Shown here: one piece after another, positions 1 through 16,004 of the stretch
How the letters are laid out: each line of letters starts with the position of its first letter
Numbering within the stretch: position 1 is the first letter of the stretch
DNA from: a virus
Taxonomy: Duplodnaviria; Heunggongvirae; Uroviricota; Caudoviricetes
Direction: 5' to 3' (one strand)
DNA length: 16,004 bases
Virus record (IMG/VR): IMGVR_UViG_2579778633_000006
The notes under the pieces: generated by a model
Databases searched by the model: none
Told to the model about the DNA's origin: nothing
The model's input: the letters and a program-made list of their open reading frames with translations, nothing else
Made by a program: the position numbers and the translations under genes

Positions 1-474
1 ATGTACAGTCCGGTACAAATAGCCAATAAATTCATAACGTTGGGAAACCAACATCATAATCCTCTGACCCACATGCAACTGCAGAAGCTTACTTATATTG
101 CCCATGGTTACTATTTAGCATTAACAGGTAAGCCTTTGCTCAATGAATGTGTCTCCGCGTGGAAGTACGGTCCAGTTATTCCTGGAATGTACGATGCTTT
201 CAAAGACTATGGGAATAAACCTGTTACGAATGTAGCAGTAGCTCCTTTTGGTGGCATCGTTACTATGGATCCGCAAGCAGAGAGCATTATCGGGGCTGTT
301 TATAAGTTTTACGGCTCGAAAAATGGAATTGAGTTATCAACTCTAACTCATATGCCAGGTACGCCTTGGTCACAAGCTTATAATGGTATTGGCTCGTCGA
401 TCATCTCAAATGATGCGATCAAGGCTTATTATCATGATTTATTGAATAACCGACAGCAATGTCAGGGCCTCTGA
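1..474 (+). CDS. Panacea-domain (DUF4065, SocA/GepA-like) protein; putative antitoxin-type component
   Basis: 157-aa ORF starting at ATG at position 1. Motifs recalled from DUF4065 proteins: LQKLTYIAHGYYLA, AWKYGPV, THMPGTPW. Followed after a 22-nt gap by a co-oriented ORF. Confidence 0.65.
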   Translation: MYSPVQIANKFITLGNQHHNPLTHMQLQKLTYIAHGYYLALTGKPLLNECVSAWKYGPVIPGMYDAFKDYGNKPVTNVAVAPFGGIVTMDPQAESIIGAVYKFYGSKNGIELSTLTHMPGTPWSQAYNGIGSSIISNDAIKAYYHDLLNNRQQCQGL

Positions 475-496: not shown

Positions 497-1045
497 ATGT
501 CTCATAATTCAGATATCTATAAACTGATCGGAGCGGCCGCAGGTGTTGAAAATGGTCGCTCTGAAGCATCCTTAAACTCTACTGACAGTCAAGAGCAGGC
601 TTTTGAATCCGCATTTGAGCCGTCTAATCATGAACGCGATGATGATTCTTCTTCAGAAAATAAGGCTATTCTGGAGGAAGAAGAGTTTGGTTCTAATACT
701 GGTGCATTGCATGAGTTTATGCAGCAGAACAGAATGGACAGTCTTCAAGCTCAGCTTGATATGCTCAAATCACAAGTACGGGATAAGATAGCTGACGCAA
801 CTGGTAAAGAAATAGACAATGAGCTCCGGACAAAAATGGCATCATTCACGGTTTGGTTTATGTCGTGTTGGTGCTTATTCGTTGTCGCAATGTTTACATC
901 GTTTCTTATTGCACATGAAGGAAAGGCTCCAGTTGAAGCGATCGTTGCATTACTAGGTACAAGTACAATTAGTATTGTTGGTTTGGTTGGTTTCGTTGTT
1001 AGTGGATTGTTCAAATCAAGAAAAGATAGTGATAAAGAAAAATAA
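497..1045 (+). CDS. Hypothetical small membrane protein (acidic N-terminal region, two C-terminal TM helices); candidate toxin partner of the upstream Panacea protein
   Basis: 182-aa ORF with AGGGA 6 nt upstream of ATG. C-terminal hydrophobic stretches FTVWFMSCWCLFVVAMFTSFLI and AIVALLGTSTISIVGLVGFVVSGLF. Ends at a hairpin terminator. Confidence 0.5.
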   Translation: MSHNSDIYKLIGAAAGVENGRSEASLNSTDSQEQAFESAFEPSNHERDDDSSSENKAILEEEEFGSNTGALHEFMQQNRMDSLQAQLDMLKSQVRDKIADATGKEIDNELRTKMASFTVWFMSCWCLFVVAMFTSFLIAHEGKAPVEAIVALLGTSTISIVGLVGFVVSGLFKSRKDSDKEK

Positions 1046-7710: not shown

Positions 7711-8141
7711 TCATGAGTCTTTTGAATGAAGTTCAGAAATACATTGAAGCCCATCCGGGGTGTACTTCCGGAGACATTGCGGATGCTTTTGCAGGTTACT
7801 CACGGCAGCGCGTTCTGCAGTCAGCAAGCAAGTTACGTCAGAGTGGTCGTGTGGCTCACCGTTGTGAAGGGGATACACGCAGACATTTCCCGCGCCTGAC
7901 TGAGAGAGCGCAGGAGGCGGAACCGCAACCAGTTCGTGAAACCAGACCTGTGCGCAATTTCTATGTCGGCACTAACGATCCCCGGGTGATTTTGTGCCTG
8001 ACCCGCCAGGCGGAAGAACTGGAGTCGAGGGGCTTATACCGTCGTGCTGCAACGGTGTGGATGGCGGCATTCCGTGAAAGCCACTCCCAGCCAGAGCGAA
8101 ACAATTTTCTTGCGCGTCGTGAAGGCCGCAAAAACGTCTGA
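7707..8141 (+). CDS. PerC-family-like transcriptional regulator (C-terminal GLYRRAATVW motif), N-terminal winged-helix-like extension
   Basis: 144-aa ORF with ATGA overlap to upstream gene; C-terminal LESRGLYRRAATVWMAAF resembles the LE..GLWRRAA.RW signature I recall for PerC/Pch proteins. Confidence 0.45.
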   Translation: MIMSLLNEVQKYIEAHPGCTSGDIADAFAGYSRQRVLQSASKLRQSGRVAHRCEGDTRRHFPRLTERAQEAEPQPVRETRPVRNFYVGTNDPRVILCLTRQAEELESRGLYRRAATVWMAAFRESHSQPERNNFLARREGRKNV

Positions 8142-10536
8142 GACGAATGCGGATAACAGCGCACAGGCGGCAGCGGCCTCACAAACTGCATCGGCAAACT
8201 CCGCGACAGCAGCCAAAAAATCAGAAACCAACGCGAAAAATAGCGAGGCAGCAGCAAAGAGCAGCGAAACTAATGCTAAATCCAGTGAAACAAACGCGGC
8301 GAAATCTGCAGCGGACGCACTTAATTATCGCAACCAGGCACAATCCGTTGTTGGTAACAATATTGGTCTTGGTGAAGTTGCTATGACCTGCACTGATATC
8401 TCTGTTGAGCCATCAGGTTATATTGGATTTATCAGGATTTACATCTCAGCGAAAGGTTATCCATCAGTAGCGTCTAGTGCCGGGGATAATCTTATTTCTG
8501 GTTATATAGTTAGATCAGAAGTGTCAACAAAAAGATATTCCGGTCTATTTGTTGGTTCAGATACAAAATCATTGTATTCGTACATTTACAGCCAAAGTTC
8601 TGGCCCGCAATGGATACGTCATACCCGCAGAGATGAATTAAGCCGCTTTGGTCAAAATGAATCAACAACTCGTATGTATGGTCCAACTGGTGATCGTTTC
8701 TTTGAAATCCATACTAACGGGAGTTGGGGGGTTTATGATTCTTCTTCTGGACAATGGTCTCCGTTAGGTTTAGCCCAGGGTGGTACTGGTGGAAGAACTA
8801 TCGAGCAAGCACGTGCGAACTTGCGGGTAATGTATGAGCAAAAAGCTGGCCTTGCTAATACTGACCTAAACACCCTTACCGGTGAATATTCTGGTTTCTA
8901 TCAACAACCAACGAGCGCTTACGCAACAGAAGAATTAAATTACCCAATCGGTCTGGCGGGCGCTTTAATAGTGCTCCAAACGAGAGCCAACACTGCTTCT
9001 TCCTGCGTTCAGGTGTACCACCCTTATAATAATCCGGGAATTACTTATAGACGAATATATGAAGGAGGTAGCGGTACCTGGTCTGAATGGAAGAGAGATG
9101 TATCAACAGAAAGGGTTGAAGAGGGAAAAGAAACAACTTACGTATATTCTACGTATTCTTCAGGCGCACCACGCTTACAGGTTTCCAAATCTGGTTTGTG
9201 GGGTTGTCATAATGGCACTGGCTGGTTGCCATTAGCTGTTGGGCAAGGAGGTACAGGTGCGACAACAGTAGAAGATGCGCGAAACAACTTAAGTCTTGGC
9301 GAAAGTAGCGCAGTTAAATTTAAAAACCTTACTTTAACCGAAGCGCTCGACACGACATTAGGACTGCTTACAAAAACAGGACGAGACTGGAACGCTCAGC
9401 ATACTGATAACGTCGACAAATTTAGACCAATTGCAGGCAGTACAAACGGCCCGGCAGGCTCTATGGTTCTTGGCGGCATTCATGTTCAATTTAGTAAAAA
9501 TTATGCTGTGCAGTTCGGAGGCCGCAATTCCGGTTTTTGGGGAAGAACAATTGAAAATGGAACGACGCAGGAATGGAAGAAATTACTAACAGTAGACGAT
9601 CTCAATTCATCTACCGCTCTTGCTGTCAGGTCATTAACCACATCTAACCCGATAAAATCTGGCGGAGGGCGGATTGATGTCCTTGGAAGCACGTCAGACT
9701 ATAGCAAAATGGATTGCTTTGTACGTGGGTTTGATAGCACCGGTAATTCTCTCGCGTGGGCGTTGGGTTCATCAGTCGGCGTAAGTAAGATGCTGTCGCT
9801 AAAAAATTTCTTTAGCGGAGCTGAGATACTGCTAAATGGTAATGACGGCGCGGTTCAACTCAAAACAGGTGCTGTTAACGGTGCTAAAGCGCAGGCGCTC
9901 ACTATCAACAAGGATGAGGTTAACTCAACTGTTGATTTAACTCTTACAAAACAAACAGGGACTGGCAATCGTTTTGTTTTACAGAACTTAGGTAATACAG
10001 AACTACCATTTGCTGTCAAGGTGTGGGGTTCAGGTGATCGACAAAACGTTTTTGAGGTTGGAACGTCTGCCGCGTATCTGTTTTATGCTCAAAAAACATC
10101 GTCAGGTCAGCTGTTTGATGTAAACGGTGCTATTAACTGTACAACACTGAATCAGTTATCAGACCGCGAGCTGAAAGACAATATTCAGATTATCAGTGAC
10201 GCAACCGAAGCTATCCGTAAAATGAACGGGTACACCTACACACTTAAGGAAAACGGACTGCCTTACGCTGGTGTTATTGCACAGGAAGCAATGGAGGCAA
10301 TACCGGAAGCGGTAGGCTCATTCACTCATTACGGTAAAGAGTTGCAGGGACCAACGGTTGACGGCAATGAATTACGTGAAGAAACACGTTATCTGAATGT
10401 TGACTACGCCGCCGTGACGGGCTTACTTGTTCAGGTCGCCCGTGAAACAGATGATCGCGTTACCGCGCTGGAAGAAGAAAACGCAGAATTAAAACAAAGA
10501 TTATCTGCAATTGAGGCGGCGCTTGCCTCTAAATAA
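8125..10536 (+). pseudogene. Tail-fibre gene remnant, 5'-truncated (no start codon in the homologous region), with intact C-terminal intramolecular-chaperone-like domain
   Basis: KTSETNA/KSSETNA repeats as in lambda Stf-type fibres; two GQGGTGA-T-E-AR-NL tail-fibre repeats; C-terminal SDRELKDNI...NGYTY...AELKQRL resembles the autocleaving chaperone domain of fibres/tailspikes. Fibre homology begins in the +1 frame inside the last codons of the PerC-like gene; the only in-frame start upstream is a GTG at 8044 translating unrelated sequence. Confidence 0.6.
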
Positions 10537-10542
10537 TATTAA

Positions 10543-10568
10543 GGGGCTGTGCGCCCCGTTTTATTGGG
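10543..10568 (+). terminator. Intrinsic terminator after tail-fibre ORF
   Basis: GGGGC(10543-10547)-tgtgc-GCCCC(10553-10557) followed by GTTTTATTGGG. Confidence 0.5.
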
Positions 10569-10572
10569 TAGG

Positions 10573-10866
10573 ATGAAAATGGGTATAACACCTTTCCTTC
10601 ATGCACTTTGTGCTGTGGCTGCGCAGATACTGGTGGGGCTTTTTACCGGAAACTGGGTTTACGGAGCGATAGCCAGTTGTACGTTCTTCATTGCGGGCGA
10701 ACACACCCAAGCATAATATCGCTGGATTGAAATGTTCGGGCATGGCAAGCGGATTAACATGCCGTGGTGGGGCGGTTTTGATCCACGCGCATGGGATGTG
10801 GCAAGCCTGATGGATTTTGCTGTGCCGATGGTAGCGTGTCTTCTGATCTGGCTGTTGATCCGTTGA
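10573..10866 (+). pseudogene. Small membrane-protein gene interrupted by an in-frame TAA (10714-10716)
   Basis: Single reading frame from ATG 10573 to TGA 10864-10866 encodes MKMGITPFLHALCAVAAQILVGLFTGNWVYGAIASCTFFIAGEHTQA * YRWIEMFGHGKRINMPWWGGFDPRAWDVASLMDFAVPMVACLLIWLLIR; both halves look protein-like and are in the same frame. Confidence 0.35.
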
Positions 10867-10870
10867 ACAT

Positions 10871-10915
10871 AAAAAGCCGCAGCAACTTGCCATGGCAGGA
10901 TACTGCGGCTGGTTT
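10871..10915. terminator. Bidirectional intrinsic terminator between the small membrane pseudogene and the RT operon
   Basis: Stem GCCGCAG(10876-10882)/CTGCGGC(10903-10909); A5 on plus strand upstream gives a U5 run after the stem on the minus-strand (RT operon) transcript; TGGTTTGTG after the stem on the plus strand. Confidence 0.45.
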
Positions 10916-10973
10916 GTGAGTTTAAATAGTGTGTTTATTGCGATATATTTTAATGACTTAATGGATTACATAT

Positions 10974-12350
10974 CTATGATATTCCTGAAATATCCTCTTC
11001 AAGCTCTTTTACTGATTTCGCAATTTTAAATTTAAACTTCCTCTCTATTTCACTATTGCTAAGTTTTTTTTCCTTCTCTTTACCTATCCACATAGAAACA
11101 AGTTCTCGTTTCTGAGATATATGTAGATTGTCAAAGTTAGGTATGTATTTAAAAGTCTCCGCTCTACCTCTGCGGAGTTCATAGAAAGTTTTAATCAAAG
11201 ATTTTGGTTTTATTTCTGATGAAAGGCCGAATCGGCGGATAAGATTATTGATAGTATGATTAACAGAGCGAAGTTGAGCTGTTGAGGTTATTTGTGAGAA
11301 GTACGATACCCATCCCAATCGTTTACCTTCAAACACACATCCCGTAATTCTGAGATTTAGTTTCCACTGACAATATGCAACAGCTCGTTCTTTATCACGC
11401 TTACTTTTAGCTTGTAGTAGAGCGTGCCTATATGCAGTAAAAATTTTTGCTAAGGATGACTCAAATCTAAGAATGCTCTCATGTTTTATCAATAATTCTC
11501 GATTTTCTATGTGGTATCCCAAAAAGTTAAAACTTTCATCCAAACTGCCTACTTTGGATTTTGAGTTCTCTTCATTTAATGGATGTGGGTTTAAATTTAA
11601 TGATTGAAGCTTATCAATGATATGAGAAGCTATTTTTGTTGCTTGATATTTTGGTGTTAAAATAAGAATGTCATCAACGTATCGCATGTACCATATGTCA
11701 TGCATTTTATTGATTTCATCATCGAAATTAGATAGTGATATTTCAGCTAAAATGTTTGATATCGCTAATCCCTGAGGTACTCCTCTGGTATTATTAGGGA
11801 TACCTTTGCTTCCTGTGGTTCCACTTACAGTAGGCACGATTAATGATGATGTTATTAACTGTCTAATTTCTTTTTTTCTAATTTTATTTTTTATTGCATT
11901 AATTATCAATTTATGTTCAATTGAAGGATAGAAACTTTTAAGATCTATTTTTGCATATTCAGCATATAGACTGTTGTTTAATGCTTCTTTCAATGAGTCA
12001 ATTACTGTATGTGGTAGTTTTAATCTGGACTTAGGATATATTTCCGTAAGGCATTCACAGAGAGCTCTAAGAGTAATTCTGTCCCTAGCAGTTGGTATGG
12101 AAATCTGTCTGGGTGTAGAGTTAGCGCCTTTAGATATTAATTTTTCTTTATATGCTGTAAATTTGTAATTGCCAGAATTAACCTTTTCAAAAATGAAAGT
12201 GATCTCATTTTTTATTGTCAAATCAAGTTTTGATGGGCGAATCCGATCTATGCCAATCGCTCCTGATTCTTTGATTTTTTCAGAGTATACTTTTAGAAGA
12301 TTTTTTTTCGAGAATGACTTTTTAAAAATTCTGCTTGCAGTCATAGTCAA
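10974..12350 (-). CDS. Reverse transcriptase (bacterial defence-type RT; retron-like vs UG/Abi-like unresolved), 458 aa with C-terminal extension
   Basis: RT motifs in order: GIDRIRP; RQISIPTARDRITLRAL; IDLKSFYPSIEH; GVPQGLAISNILAEI; YMRYVDDILIL (YxDD catalytic box); FNFLGYHI. AT-rich gene; start overlaps upstream TM-protein gene by ~29 nt. Confidence 0.85.
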   Translation of the reverse strand: MTMTASRIFKKSFSKKNLLKVYSEKIKESGAIGIDRIRPSKLDLTIKNEITFIFEKVNSGNYKFTAYKEKLISKGANSTPRQISIPTARDRITLRALCECLTEIYPKSRLKLPHTVIDSLKEALNNSLYAEYAKIDLKSFYPSIEHKLIINAIKNKIRKKEIRQLITSSLIVPTVSGTTGSKGIPNNTRGVPQGLAISNILAEISLSNFDDEINKMHDIWYMRYVDDILILTPKYQATKIASHIIDKLQSLNLNPHPLNEENSKSKVGSLDESFNFLGYHIENRELLIKHESILRFESSLAKIFTAYRHALLQAKSKRDKERAVAYCQWKLNLRITGCVFEGKRLGWVSYFSQITSTAQLRSVNHTINNLIRRFGLSSEIKPKSLIKTFYELRRGRAETFKYIPNFDNLHISQKRELVSMWIGKEKEKKLSNSEIERKFKFKIAKSVKELEEDISGIS

Positions 12351-12873
12351 TCCAAAGATATATTAATGGGAGTATATAAAGTGCGGCAGTAATAAATATT
12401 CGAAGTAATATCCATAAAATAACAATTATTTTTTCTTTTTGTGTGGGGATCCTCGTCTTAAGTCCAACTTGAGTTACCCTTGAAATTTTATCATCTATGT
12501 CACGGTGATTCTCAACCTCATTGAGCAAATTAAAATATTTTTCTTTCTGTTCAAGAGATAACTGTTGACTGGTGGTAATGTCAAAATAGAGTCGCTGTAG
12601 TGCAATATAATTCCTTCTCATGGCTATTGCTCGACCACGAAAATCTAGGTTAGATACGATCAGAGAAATACCCAGTAGAGCCACTGAAAGTATCGCCGCA
12701 ACGACATCTGTATTATCTCCTAGAACCTTTGGAAATCGCAACGTTACAATTGAAAGTACCGCACTCAATATAGCATACCAAACGAGGATAAATTGAGAGT
12801 GTTTTTCAAGCCATTCTAGTCGATGGTGCGCTTGGATACGTGCTTTATATGTAAACCAAATATTGTCATGCAT
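12322..12873 (-). CDS. Multi-TM small protein, SLATT-like (putative membrane effector of the RT system)
   Basis: 183-aa ORF; AGGA RBS 5-8 nt upstream of ATG 12871-12873; hydrophobic helices FILVWYAILSAVLSIVTL, VVAAILSVALLGISLIVS and C-terminal IIVILWILLRIFITAALYILPLIYLW separated by a charged helical region; 3' end overlaps RT start. Confidence 0.6.
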   Translation of the reverse strand: MHDNIWFTYKARIQAHHRLEWLEKHSQFILVWYAILSAVLSIVTLRFPKVLGDNTDVVAAILSVALLGISLIVSNLDFRGRAIAMRRNYIALQRLYFDITTSQQLSLEQKEKYFNLLNEVENHRDIDDKISRVTQVGLKTRIPTQKEKIIVILWILLRIFITAALYILPLIYLWIDYDCKQNF

Positions 12874-12893
12874 AAAAGATCCTTTTTAAAAGC

Positions 12894-13028
12894 GGAAGGG
12901 GCAGGATATATTGGAACCGTTGAACATCCTGCCCGGCAGGATCAGTGAGCATAAGCTCAACAGTAAAATATTACTGTTCATTATCAGAGCCGCCCTTGCA
13001 TGCGCAAGAGGAAAAACCTGCCCCATCC
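12894..13028 (-). other. Palindrome/inverted-repeat-rich non-coding region upstream of the TM-RT operon (candidate structured ncRNA and/or operator array)
   Basis: 12-bp flanking inverted repeat GGAAGGGGCAGG (12894-12905) vs CCTGCCCCATCC (13017-13028), 1 mismatch, 111 bp apart; perfect 17-bp palindrome ATCCTGCC-c-GGCAGGAT (12926-12942) plus an extra GGCAGGAT copy (12900-12907); CAGTA-aaatat-TACTG (12961-12976); CTTGC-atgc-GCAAG (12995-13008). Confidence 0.3.
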
Positions 13029-13095
13029 CTTTGAATTATTACAATTTAATGATCTTAAAGTCAATACAAGTGAATGGTGTCCAGAGATGATGAAC

Positions 13096-13344
13096 TTAAT
13101 GAACAAACCACTCGTCAGCAGACTCCCAGGTATCTTTCAGAGTCTCCTGAACAAAAGTTTTAGCTGAATCTTTATCAGCGGTGCGCGTAACAGAAAGGCC
13201 ATCGTTGCTGGTGGCTTTTACGATCACTTCTACATCGTCATAACGTTTACTGATGCGTCGGGTTAATTCTTCCTTTAACGCATCCACAGCACCGGTTGGC
13301 ATTTTAGTCATTTTTTCTTTGGCTATGCAGATTTCAATACGCAT
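13096..13344 (-). CDS. dinI: DinI-family protein (SOS-inducible RecA modulator homolog)
   Basis: 82-aa ORF; MRIE..IAK...GA.DAL..EL.RRI...LSV....QET...WESADEWFV match the E. coli DinI pattern as I recall it; two LexA boxes immediately upstream. Confidence 0.8.
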
Positions 13345-13358
13345 AAAAGTCCCCTACA

Positions 13359-13402
13359 CTGTATTTGTATACAGTATTATTTTTAACTGTATGGATAAAC
13401 AG
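13359..13402. promoter_or_regulatory. Two tandem LexA (SOS) boxes upstream of the dinI-family gene
   Basis: CTGT-ATTTGTAT-ACAG (13359-13374) and CTGT-ATGGATAA-ACAG (13387-13402); both fit CTGT-N8-ACAG; located 15-58 bp upstream of the dinI start, overlapping the 3' flank of the integrase stop. Confidence 0.7.
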
Positions 13403-13404
13403 TG

Positions 13405-14502
13405 TCAAGAGGTCTTATTTCTGCTCCTTTGGAGTTCTTCAAAACGATTATGTAAAGATTTCGGATACAGTTCGGTATATACCTGCCATAGCACGTTTAA
13501 TGAACGATGCCCTGTAACCTGAGCGACTTCCTCAATACTAAAACCAGCCTCAAATAAGCGACTTGCCCCTTCTCTACGCAAATCATGGTATCTCAGATCT
13601 TTAATACCTAATTTGCTTCTTACCCTCTGAAATCCTGCGGTAACAGAAGTGCTGTTATATGGAAAAATGAATTCTGATTTTTTGGGTTGTCGCTGGACGA
13701 TATCCCAGGCTTCCCCAAGCAAGGCAACTTTCATATGGTTGCCTTCCTTTTTACGTGGATCTTTCCTGTCTCTTACTAGTATAGATTTTTGTTCCTGGTC
13801 GAGATCTTCCCATCGTAACCGGCATACTTCTCCGATTCGCATACAGGACCACACAGAAAATTTGAGGATATCAACGAACGGAATTTTTGAGCATTTATGA
13901 GTAGATCGTTGTTGAAGGCCTTCAATGAGCATGTTCAGTTCATCAGATGCTGGTCTACGATTACGACGGTTTGATTTACCAATCAAACCGAGTTTAAGTA
14001 GATATGGACGAGCGCTTTTCGCCGGGTTTGATGTGTAATTGATTCCGTATACAGGTTTTGCCGCATCCAGAACACTGCCAAGATAACTAACATCGTGGCT
14101 GACTGTTGCTGGGCCTGCACCAGCGTTGTTTCTTAGCCTGCAATGTTCAATTACGTCATTTTCTGTCAGTTCAGATAGTTTGATCGCGGAGATGTCACTA
14201 TCCATAAGCAGTTCCAGCACATATCTTTTAGTACGGCCTGCTTTACCTCCGGCATTTGGGTCATTTAAATATTTGTGTAGTAAGTCACGGACTGTAAGTC
14301 CGTCAACAGCATTTGATGATGGAATGCCATATAGATCTAATTCCATCACTTTCTGTGCGCCCCATGTTTTGGCATGAGCATGTTTAGGGAATGTTTTGCT
14401 TTCCCTGTAAGTGATAACACCTTTTTCTTTGATAATCACATTACAGCGATAGCGTGGTGTGCCATCGGATTTTAGTCGTTTCTCTATGTTATAGTACGCC
14501 AT
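13405..14502 (-). CDS. int: Tyrosine-type site-specific integrase (phage integrase family), adjacent to and divergent from dusA
   Basis: 365-aa ORF; C-terminal catalytic signatures MRIGEVCRLRWEDLD (Arg), YHDLRREGASRL (HxxR), GHRSLNVLWQVYTEL (His/Trp and Tyr). Confidence 0.9.
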   Translation of the reverse strand: MAYYNIEKRLKSDGTPRYRCNVIIKEKGVITYRESKTFPKHAHAKTWGAQKVMELDLYGIPSSNAVDGLTVRDLLHKYLNDPNAGGKAGRTKRYVLELLMDSDISAIKLSELTENDVIEHCRLRNNAGAGPATVSHDVSYLGSVLDAAKPVYGINYTSNPAKSARPYLLKLGLIGKSNRRNRRPASDELNMLIEGLQQRSTHKCSKIPFVDILKFSVWSCMRIGEVCRLRWEDLDQEQKSILVRDRKDPRKKEGNHMKVALLGEAWDIVQRQPKKSEFIFPYNSTSVTAGFQRVRSKLGIKDLRYHDLRREGASRLFEAGFSIEEVAQVTGHRSLNVLWQVYTELYPKSLHNRFEELQRSRNKTS

Positions 14503-14520
14503 TACACGACCTCGTTATTT

Positions 14521-14557
14521 CGGGTTCCCATAAAGCGTGGGAACCTGTGCGGGAACC
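14521..14557. repeat. GGGTTCCC / GGGAACC repeat cluster in the int-dusA intergenic region (candidate recombinase-binding or regulatory sites)
   Basis: GGGTTCCC (14522-14529), GGGAACC (14539-14545) and GGGAACC (14551-14557): one inverted and two direct copies within 36 bp. Confidence 0.35.
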
Positions 14558-14590
14558 TAACGCGAGAAAAATAGCCTGAAATGTTCAAAA

Positions 14591-15628
14591 ATGCACGATA
14601 ATCCTGAAACACAGAAAACTAATCAAACCAGCGTGATGCCTGAAAAAACTGGCGCTTACTGGAGTTCTCGGTTTAGCATTGCTCCTATGCTCGACTGGAC
14701 GGACAGACATTGCCGCTATTTCTTGCGTCTGCTTTCCCGCAATACGTTGCTGTATACCGAAATGGTGACCACAGGGGCGATTATTCACGGTAAAGGTGAT
14801 TACCTGGCGTACAGTGAAGAAGAACATCCGGTAGCGTTGCAACTCGGCGGTAGCGATCCGGCGGCGCTGGCACAGTGTGCGAAGCTGGCAGAAGCGCGTG
14901 GATATGATGAGATCAACCTGAATGTCGGCTGCCCGTCTGACCGGGTGCAGAACGGCATGTTTGGTGCGTGTCTGATGGGTAATGCGCAGCTGGTTGCCGA
15001 CTGCGTGAAAGCGATGCGCGATGTGGTGTCGATTCCAGTGACGGTGAAAACGCGTATTGGCATCGATGACCAGGACAGCTATGAATTTCTCTGCGATTTC
15101 ATCAACACCGTTTCCGGCAAAGGCGAGTGTGAGATGTTTATCATCCACGCACGTAAAGCCTGGCTTTCGGGGTTAAGCCCGAAAGAAAACCGTGAAATCC
15201 CGCCGCTCGATTATCCGCGTGTGTATCAACTGAAGCGTGACTTTCCGCATCTGACAATGTCGATTAACGGTGGTATCAAGTCGCTGGAAGAGGCCAAAGC
15301 ACACCTGCAACATATGGATGGCGTGATGGTCGGGCGCGAGGCGTATCAGAATCCGGGTATTCTGGCGGCGGTAGACCGGGAGATCTTTGGTTCCTCGGAT
15401 ACCGATGCCGATCCAGTGGCGGTAGTGCGCGCCATGTATCCGTACATTGAGCGTGAACTCAGCCAGGGGACGTATCTCGGCCATATTACCCGGCATATGT
15501 TGGGCTTGTTCCAGGGTATTCCTGGCGCGCGGCAGTGGCGGCGTTATTTAAGTGAAAATGCCCATAAAGCGGGTGCAGACATTAATGTGCTGGAACACGC
15601 GCTCAAACTGGTGGCGGATAAGCGTTAA
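14591..15628 (+). CDS. dusA: tRNA-dihydrouridine synthase A
   Basis: 345-aa ORF with conserved Dus-family sequence ([30 protein letters not shown], catalytic Cys region); followed by pspG as in E. coli. The 5' end may be element-derived; true start may lie downstream of 14591. Confidence 0.9.
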
Positions 15629-15660
15629 CTTTTCACCAAAAAGTAGTCAAATTCACCACG

Positions 15661-15687
15661 CCCTGCGCACCGTCGCGGGGCATTTTG
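15661..15687 (+). terminator. Possible intrinsic terminator after dusA
   Basis: CCCTGCG-caccgt-CGCGGGG stem (one G-U pair) followed by CATTTTG. Confidence 0.35.
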
Positions 15688-15693
15688 CTGTTA

Positions 15694-15726
15694 AATCAAT
15701 AGATTATTTTTGGCATGATTCTTGTA
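15694..15726 (+). promoter_or_regulatory. Candidate IHF site plus sigma54-type promoter upstream of pspG
   Basis: AATCAATAGATTA (15694-15706) fits WATCAANNNNTTR; TGGCAT-gattc-TTGTA (15711-15726) approximates the TGGCAC-N5-TTGCW -24/-12 consensus with two mismatches. Confidence 0.4.
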
Positions 15727-15761
15727 ATGCCAGCAAGAGATTTCATATTTGGGAGAGCATC

Positions 15762-16004
15762 ATGCTGGAACTACTTTTTGTGTTTGGCTTTTTTGTCATG
15801 CTGATGGTCACCGGCGTTTCGTTGCTGGGCATTATCGCCGCGCTGGTTGTGGCGACGGCCATTATGTTCCTCGGCGGTATGCTGGCATTGATGATTAAGT
15901 TGCTGCCGTGGTTACTACTGGCGATTGCGGTGGTGTGGGTTATTAAGGCGATTAAAGCACCAAAAGTGCCGAAATATCAGCGTTATGACCGCTGGCGTTA
16001 CTAA
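15762..16004 (+). CDS. pspG: Phage shock protein G (small inner-membrane protein)
   Basis: 80-aa ORF from ATG 15762 (MLELLFVFGFFVMLMVTGVSLLGIIAALVVATAIMFLGG...KYQRYDRWRY), matching E. coli PspG as I recall it; the listed ORF 15552-16004 is an upstream in-frame extension. Confidence 0.85.
   Translation: MLELLFVFGFFVMLMVTGVSLLGIIAALVVATAIMFLGGMLALMIKLLPWLLLAIAVVWVIKAIKAPKVPKYQRYDRWRY

Follow-up and report, generated by a model that had tools for sequence, protein, structure and literature searches.

What class of reverse transcriptase (RT) system is encoded at positions 10,974 to 13,095 of IMG/VR record IMGVR_UViG_2579778633_000006, and has such a system been described before? The record, a stretch of 16,004 nucleotides that we call the window, is E. 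coli chromosome, and the locus consists of two overlapping genes, one for a membrane protein and one for an RT, preceded by a structured non-coding region. The original prediction, made from the DNA letters, saw here a candidate RT-based anti-phage cassette of unresolved class and left three options for it: a divergent retron, a UG/Abi-type RT with a membrane partner, or an undescribed arrangement. Our analysis points to the second of these. We put at roughly 93% the probability that this is an intact DRT10 (UG17) defence system, that it belongs to the Eco3DRT10 lineage and that it resides in a decaying lambdoid prophage at dusA of E. coli. Since the RT falls within a characterised family with this same partner architecture, the cassette is already known and the suggested novelty does not hold; the new detail is only a natural two-base variant of the template, together with its predicted product.

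The reverse transcriptase and its SLATT partner

The RT gene occupies 10974..12344 on the minus strand and encodes 456 amino acids from an ATG at 12344 (RefSeq WP_001678535.1), which is the start given by both RefSeq and Tang et al. (PMC12632851). The open reading frame (ORF) also opens at a TTG at 12350, and counted from there (12350..10974) it has the 458 residues first reported for it. Against the PADLOC model RT_UG17, the protein gives an E-value of 1.2e-158 and 526.5 bits, covering profile positions 1-429 of 429; this full-length match supplies the profile classification that had been called for and selects the UG/Abi-type option. The second-best PADLOC model, Drt3a, reaches 127 bits and Drt9 scores 69 bits, while Pfam returns RVT_1 and no other family. 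Among the NCBIfam models, the RT passes no DRT10 model and stays below all equivalog cutoffs (Drt3a, 112.6 versus 200; Drt2, 76.2 versus 390; Drt4, 26.3 versus 450). A group II intron RT/maturase was also considered and rejected, TIGR04416 giving 144 bits versus a cutoff of 300 and no group II intron RNA being matched.

The YVDD motif seen earlier is indeed present, at residues 222-225 in the 456-residue numbering (11681..11670). The protein ends in ...EEDISGIS, with the codon for Ser456 at 10979..10977, so that the priming serine stands at the very end; all 15 relatives fetched and 5 E. coli alleles likewise end in a serine. Over the part of the Eco3DRT10 RT (OKX54664) that was compared, 394 of 399 residues are identical, and the combination of UG17 with SLATT is DRT10, so the class of the cassette is resolved and its arrangement is a described one. 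According to the supplement of Tang et al. (PMC12632851), the OKX54664 record has two spurious residues at its N-terminus, and its S458 accordingly corresponds to S456 of the paper, a mis-annotation that matches the TTG/ATG start issue of the window RT. Table S1 of that supplement includes WP_077903186.1 and WP_340018978.1, both near-identical to the window RT.

The partner gene lies at 12322..12873 on the minus strand (183 amino acids; RefSeq WP_000543834.1), has a ribosome-binding site, AAGGA, 8 nt upstream of its ATG, and overlaps the RT gene by 23 nt if the latter is counted from its ATG or by the originally noted 29 nt if it is counted from the TTG. Its product matches the PADLOC model RTasSLATT (RT-associated SLATT; E 1.5e-56) and Pfam SLATT_5 (E 1.3e-28), and passes NCBIfam SLATT_5 with 136 bits versus a cutoff of 60. 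The three hydrophobic helices proposed for it correspond to three hydrophobic segments, at residues 25-48, 54-79 and 146-175. Taken together, the RT_UG17 and RTasSLATT matches support the proposal that this anti-phage cassette is built on an RT and has SLATT as its membrane effector. As a separate observation, E. coli 510016 has an IS1A element inside the SLATT gene of an Eco3-template DRT10 copy (L018 3156-4484), a natural effector knockout in which the RT and the upstream RNA are intact.

The pairing of UG17 RTs with SLATT proteins was described in 2022 by Mestre et al. (PMC9226505), and DRT10 has since been characterised in two preprints, by Tang et al. in 2025 (PMC12632851) and by Sanchez-Nieto et al. 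in 2026 (10.64898/2026.04.29.721553). In both, it is a tripartite system of non-coding RNA (ncRNA), SLATT and RT, each of which is needed for defence. All three components, as well as the template pattern, are present in the window allele: a UG17 RT with YVDD and a C-terminal serine, an overlapping SLATT_5 gene, a covarying ncRNA and an A-B-A' template. They follow one another on the minus strand in the order ncRNA, SLATT_5 gene, RT gene, and the cassette is AT-rich, as had been remarked, with a GC content of 30-37% versus about 45-50% in the flanks.

The upstream ncRNA and its template

The non-coding stretch upstream of the gene for SLATT spans 222 bp (13095..12874, minus strand), close to the 220 bp of structured region originally delimited, and its interpretation as a functional ncRNA is borne out by comparison with relatives. 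These comprise 14 loci from Xenorhabdus, Buttiauxella, Photorhabdus, Pseudomonas and Stutzerimonas, the RTs of which are 58-84% identical; their SLATT starts were located by motif, since some start with GTG or TTG. Alignment of the sequences upstream of SLATT gives a sharply bounded conserved block, which coincides with the folded core. The consensus fold, for 16 loci, has five helices with 35 pairs, 15 of which show compensatory double changes, and such changes are present in every one of the five helices. In this fold, 98.4% of cells pair versus about 50% when the partners are slid by 1-3 columns, and none of 500 shuffles reaches the observed values. A covariance model (R1), built from the 13 most distant loci and containing no E. 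coli or Xenorhabdus sequence, has a single significant match in the window, at 13030..12890 on the minus strand (116 bits, E 1e-26). The 143-nt core of the region folds with -57.1 kcal/mol (z -4.68), and none of 200 shuffles is as stable. An Rfam scan of 10000-16004 with E up to 1 returned two chance miRNA matches only, with no described family over the ncRNA.

With its ends placed according to the 137-nt numbering of the Eco3DRT10 ncRNA (PMC12632851), the DRT10 ncRNA of the window is predicted to be about 137 nt long and to extend over 12892..13028 on the minus strand. Its basal stem pairs 13028-13017 with 12905-12894, and within this stem lie four stem-loops as well as the template loop of 20 nt. 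A sigma-70-like promoter, recognised by consensus match only, lies at 13035..13064 (minus strand) and consists of TTGACT, an 18-nt spacer and AATAAT with a TG extension, with 10 of 12 consensus matches; as it ends at 13035, the ncRNA is predicted to start near 13028. Upstream of the conserved ncRNA block, there is no conservation except for the -35/-10 pair in enterobacterial loci, the TTGAC and TG-N-(-10) elements being conserved in the Xenorhabdus, Buttiauxella and Photorhabdus loci. At the opposite end, GCUUUU follows the 3' strand of the basal stem (12888-12900, minus strand), and the ribosome-binding site of SLATT comes only about 15 nt later. Together, the long basal helix and this U-run could form a leaky terminator and in this way set how much free ncRNA is made relative to SLATT-RT read-through mRNA.

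Hairpin SL5 (helix 5), AUCCUGC-CGG-GCAGGAU at 12926..12942 on the minus strand, is paired in 100% of cells and includes one pair with a compensatory change. It lies directly 5' of the template loop and is proposed, by analogy with Eco3DRT10, to be the 5' template boundary; in the experiments of Tang et al., scrambling of SL5 abolished the repeat products (PMC12632851). The template loop itself, GUUCAACGGUUCCAAUAUAU (20 nt; 12906..12925, minus strand), follows directly 3' of SL5 and can be divided into A (CAA, 12922-12920), B (CGGUUC, 12919-12914) and A' (CAA, 12913-12911). A direct repeat of the form (U)CAA...(U)CAA, with a period of 9-10 and beginning at loop position 3-4, is found in 16 of 16 loci, and the A-B-A' signature is both necessary and sufficient for repeat addition according to Tang et al. 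(PMC12632851). Read in this register, the loop predicts a complementary DNA (cDNA) repeat of (5'-GAACCGTTG-3')n for the window allele.

The predicted repeat is GAACCGTTG, and not the GAATCATTG of the laboratory model, because two template bases differ, CAACGGUUC versus CAAUGAUUC. The Eco3-type locus of E. coli K_EC180 (L019) was used as a stand-in for the published Eco3 ncRNA sequence. Its RT is identical to the compared part of the Eco3 RT at 397 of 397 positions, and its template, CAAUGAUUC followed by CAAU, agrees with the published GAATCATTG product. Between the window and L019, the ncRNA differs at 4 of 143 positions, two of them in the template, and 451 of 456 RT residues and 179 of 183 SLATT residues are identical. 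This E. coli lineage, more than 98% identical, holds at least two template alleles, CAACGGUUC in the window and CAAUGAUUC in Eco3. Only 33 of 188 carrier genomes have at least 99% identity to an Eco3-template query; thus, the window-type template appears to be the commoner allele among carriers.

Proposed mechanism, alternatives and related systems

The evidence on Eco3DRT10 covers defence, RNA immunoprecipitation sequencing (RIP-seq), cDNA, priming and mutagenesis (PMC12632851). Its RT and ncRNA suffice in vitro to make kilobase-long single-stranded DNA (ssDNA) of tandem 9-nt repeats, the DNA is covalently joined to protein via Ser456, realignment is driven by A-A' homology with SL5 being required, and defence depends on the RT active site, the ncRNA stem-loops and SLATT (PMC12632851). 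In the window, the promoter at about 13064-13035 would similarly transcribe the 137-nt ncRNA. The RT would bind this ncRNA and use the hydroxyl of Ser456, at its own C-terminus, to prime DNA synthesis. It would then copy the 9-nt template, CAACGGUUC, from the loop that adjoins SL5 on the 3' side, after which the nascent 3' end (..TTG) would unpair and re-anneal to the downstream CAA (A'). Repetition of this cycle would produce long ssDNA, predicted to be (GAACCGTTG)n, covalently held on the RT, in a telomerase-like mode of repeat addition. SLATT would act as the membrane effector, with an activity that depends on the state or amount of the repeat ssDNA, and this state would in turn reflect constitutive synthesis set against processing factors, namely host ExoI/SbcB and phage SSB-like proteins. 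Infection would upset the balance and unleash SLATT, so that the infected cell would be sacrificed or arrested. We thus infer, for the window allele, both the repeat sequence and the link from cDNA to SLATT, with SLATT responding to the state of the RT-made repeat ssDNA and with abortive infection as the outcome.

Several points weigh against this reading. The experimental data come from another allele, the 99%-identical Eco3DRT10 (PMC12632851), and the window differs from that tested system at 5 RT residues, 4 SLATT residues and 2 template bases. The two preprints, moreover, disagree on the direction in which cDNA changes at infection and hence on how SLATT is activated: Tang et al. saw cDNA fall and proposed that cDNA restrains SLATT (PMC12632851), whereas Sanchez-Nieto et al., with another DRT10 lineage, saw first-strand cDNA rise and reported SbcB-suppressed toxicity and an SSB-like phage trigger (10.64898/2026.04.29.721553). 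The host prophage is a remnant, and expression of the cassette is presumed. Finally, the A-A' homology is 3 nt (CAA) in the window versus 4 nt (CAAU) in Eco3, and the window loop also contains GUUC-AACG-GUUC, a 4-nt repeat of 8-nt period that offers a competing register.

This competing register would lead a DRT10 to make 8-nt repeats, (CGTTGAAC)n, or an imprecise mixture of 8- and 9-nt units. The 4 nt of GUUC...GUUC, with period 8, exceed the 3 nt of CAA...CAA, with period 9, the period-8 GUUC is present in L002, L003 and L016 as well as in the window, and a cryptic re-annealing site in Eco1DRT10 is reported to lower repeat precision (Tang et al., PMC12632851). The Eco3 allele, on the other hand, also has a period-8 repeat, UUC...UUC, yet makes a precise 9-nt product, which is why we keep the 8-nt register as a minor rival and regard it as unlikely. 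The register conserved throughout the 16 loci is (U)CAA, the GUU residues of the 8-nt register abut SL5, the proposed template boundary, and three nucleotides of homology were enough in the Eco3 truncation tests (Tang et al., PMC12632851). It is likewise doubtful that the natural template polymorphism matters. If it does, the 4-nt alternative realignment site of the window allele may lead to another repeat sequence and perhaps to another period, or to 8- and 9-nt periods mixed. Were SLATT, or a phage trigger or inhibitor, to read the repeat sequence, specificity or escape could vary between the alleles.

Two further explanations concern the nature of the cassette as a whole. Were the cassette a divergent retron, its upstream RNA would have to be an msr/msd, copied once into a branched multicopy single-stranded DNA (msDNA) that guards the membrane effector, and both the order of ncRNA, effector and RT and the two-transmembrane type of effector do resemble some retrons. 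The profile scores refute this identity: NCBIfam retron_St85_RT gives 58.7 bits versus a cutoff of 235, in keeping with the earlier impression that this is not a textbook retron, and the best 25 PADLOC matches of the RT include no retron model, UG17 having 526 bits. No msr/msd family is matched in Rfam, and the ncRNA is a closed five-helix fold with a 9-nt template and not an msr/msd with flanking a1/a2 repeats, while the 99%-identical Eco3 RT is protein-primed and makes a tandem-repeat product (PMC12632851). We therefore give the retron option practically no weight, and it is dropped from the three originally listed. The cassette could instead be an inactive relic carried along in a degrading prophage, which is without 7.4 kb of its closest relatives and contains gene fragments; a neighbouring small ORF has an internal stop, and the SLATT gene of strain 510016 is disrupted by IS1. 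Set against this, both ORFs are full length and intact, YVDD and the priming serine are present, and so are the promoter, all ncRNA helices and the A-B-A' pattern; furthermore, many unrelated genomes carry the cassette with 100% identity, and it has been kept while the surrounding prophage decays. An inactive relic is thus very improbable in our estimate, and we retain the assignment as an intact DRT10 system.

Among described systems, the likeness is to Eco3DRT10 (E. coli 703491) in the C-terminal priming Ser456, the overlapping SLATT-RT operon, the 137-nt ncRNA architecture, the 20-nt template loop, the 9-nt A-B-A' register and a prophage tyrosine recombinase nearby. The UG17-A DRT10 of Escherichia sp. 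E3659 (10.64898/2026.04.29.721553) shares the ncRNA-SLATT-RT order, a SLATT_5 protein, an RT with YVDD and a template flanked by short direct repeats, and makes cDNA constitutively. It differs in belonging to a separate lineage: its RT has about 445 amino acids, its ncRNA is 143 nt long and has six stem-loops, and its repeat, AGTAATA, is a 7-mer made from ACUUAUUACU. For this system, and not for the Eco3 lineage, control by SbcB and an SSB-like trigger has been demonstrated (10.64898/2026.04.29.721553). DRT9 (UG28) and DRT2 (UG2), class 2 UG/Abi RTs as is the RT of DRT10, likewise have an ncRNA-templated, repeat-adding RT, and DRT9 is also protein-primed, with an ncRNA fold that resembles that of DRT10 according to Tang et al. 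(PMC12632851). DRT9, however, makes poly-dA from a U-tract and DRT2 a 120-nt rolling-circle concatemer encoding Neo, and the core effector of neither is SLATT. Telomerase (TERT and TER) offers a mechanistic analogy in its short internal RNA template, its boundary helix and its realignment on a template-start repeat, and Tang et al. argue for an evolutionary link between it and DRT10 (PMC12632851). Telomerase, on the other hand, is primed by chromosome ends, whereas DRT10 is protein-primed and is a bacterial immune system with a membrane effector.

The result is mainly of value for annotation. In RefSeq, the two proteins still go by the names 'reverse transcriptase domain-containing protein' and 'SLATT domain-containing protein', and the ncRNA has no annotation; the locus can now be annotated with confidence as DRT10 with its ncRNA, template and predicted product. 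A natural template that differs from the laboratory model also lends itself to a simple test of the published A-B-A' rule. The questions that the locus raises are those of the two preprints, chiefly the control of SLATT by cDNA.

Genomic setting and distribution

The cassette stands where prophage cargo had been supposed, flanked by the integrase and DinI-like genes and, at its opposite end, by a tail-fibre gene. The integrase side holds the DinI-like gene (13344..13096), a tyrosine integrase (14502..13405) and dusA; the tail-fibre gene encodes an S74 chaperone domain. The terminator that had been described next to the RT gene is an intrinsic-terminator-like hairpin with a U-run at 10868..10910 on the minus strand, 64 nt past the RT stop codon. 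Its hairpin, 10910..10875, with arms GCCGCAGUA...UUGCUGCGGC, is followed by UUUUUAU, and a 114-nt stretch folds with -24.3 kcal/mol (z -2.9). A simple terminator scan did not pick it up because its loop limit is 8 nt, and the hairpin was recovered by direct folding. As it sits between convergent genes, this terminator may also serve the plus-strand tail-fibre operon. Between it and the tail-fibre gene lies a small membrane-protein ORF (10579-10866, plus strand) with an internal TAG, a pseudogene in RefSeq, the counterpart of which is intact (95 amino acids) in strain K_EC180 (L019 5163-5450).

Among complete E. coli genomes, 188 of 5426 (about 3.5%) carry the cassette, always on the chromosome and at 90-100% identity, and two of them carry two copies. 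The sites are prophage ends at dusA or prfC. In the window and its closest relatives, the cassette is found beside the integrase at dusA; in other strains (L002, L019-L021), a block of DinI, ncRNA, SLATT and RT is found beside prfC, and in some of these prfC-side copies the DinI gene is frameshifted. DinI was considered as a fourth component and rejected: it occurs only in the E. coli loci and is absent from 14 of 14 distant loci, and is therefore not part of the DRT10 system. No match to the cassette came up when 50,697 deposited phage genomes were searched by megablast, and PADLOC gave none for the integrase and five other ORFs of the window.

The prophage at dusA is a decaying remnant, while its DRT10 cassette stays intact. 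At about 8141-8383, 7.4 kb is missing in comparison with the closest complete genomes (in strain 035152, methyltransferase, lysis, terminase and portal fragments), and at the junction a truncated PerC gene meets the sequence immediately upstream of the tail-fibre gene. At the start of the window, 1-474 (plus strand) encodes a Panacea/SocA antitoxin-domain protein (Pfam E 5.9e-18) and 497-1045 (plus strand) a 182-residue protein of phrog_13343; the two may be a PanA-type toxin-antitoxin pair, and PADLOC returned no match for either protein. Beyond these genes lies an AT-rich island of 26-33% GC (1385-2221, with 1079-1348, both minus strand), in which an ORF of 260-278 amino acids matches phrog_14996 and no Pfam or PADLOC model. 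With a PrtN-like activator gene as its neighbour, this ORF could be a further moron or accessory gene.

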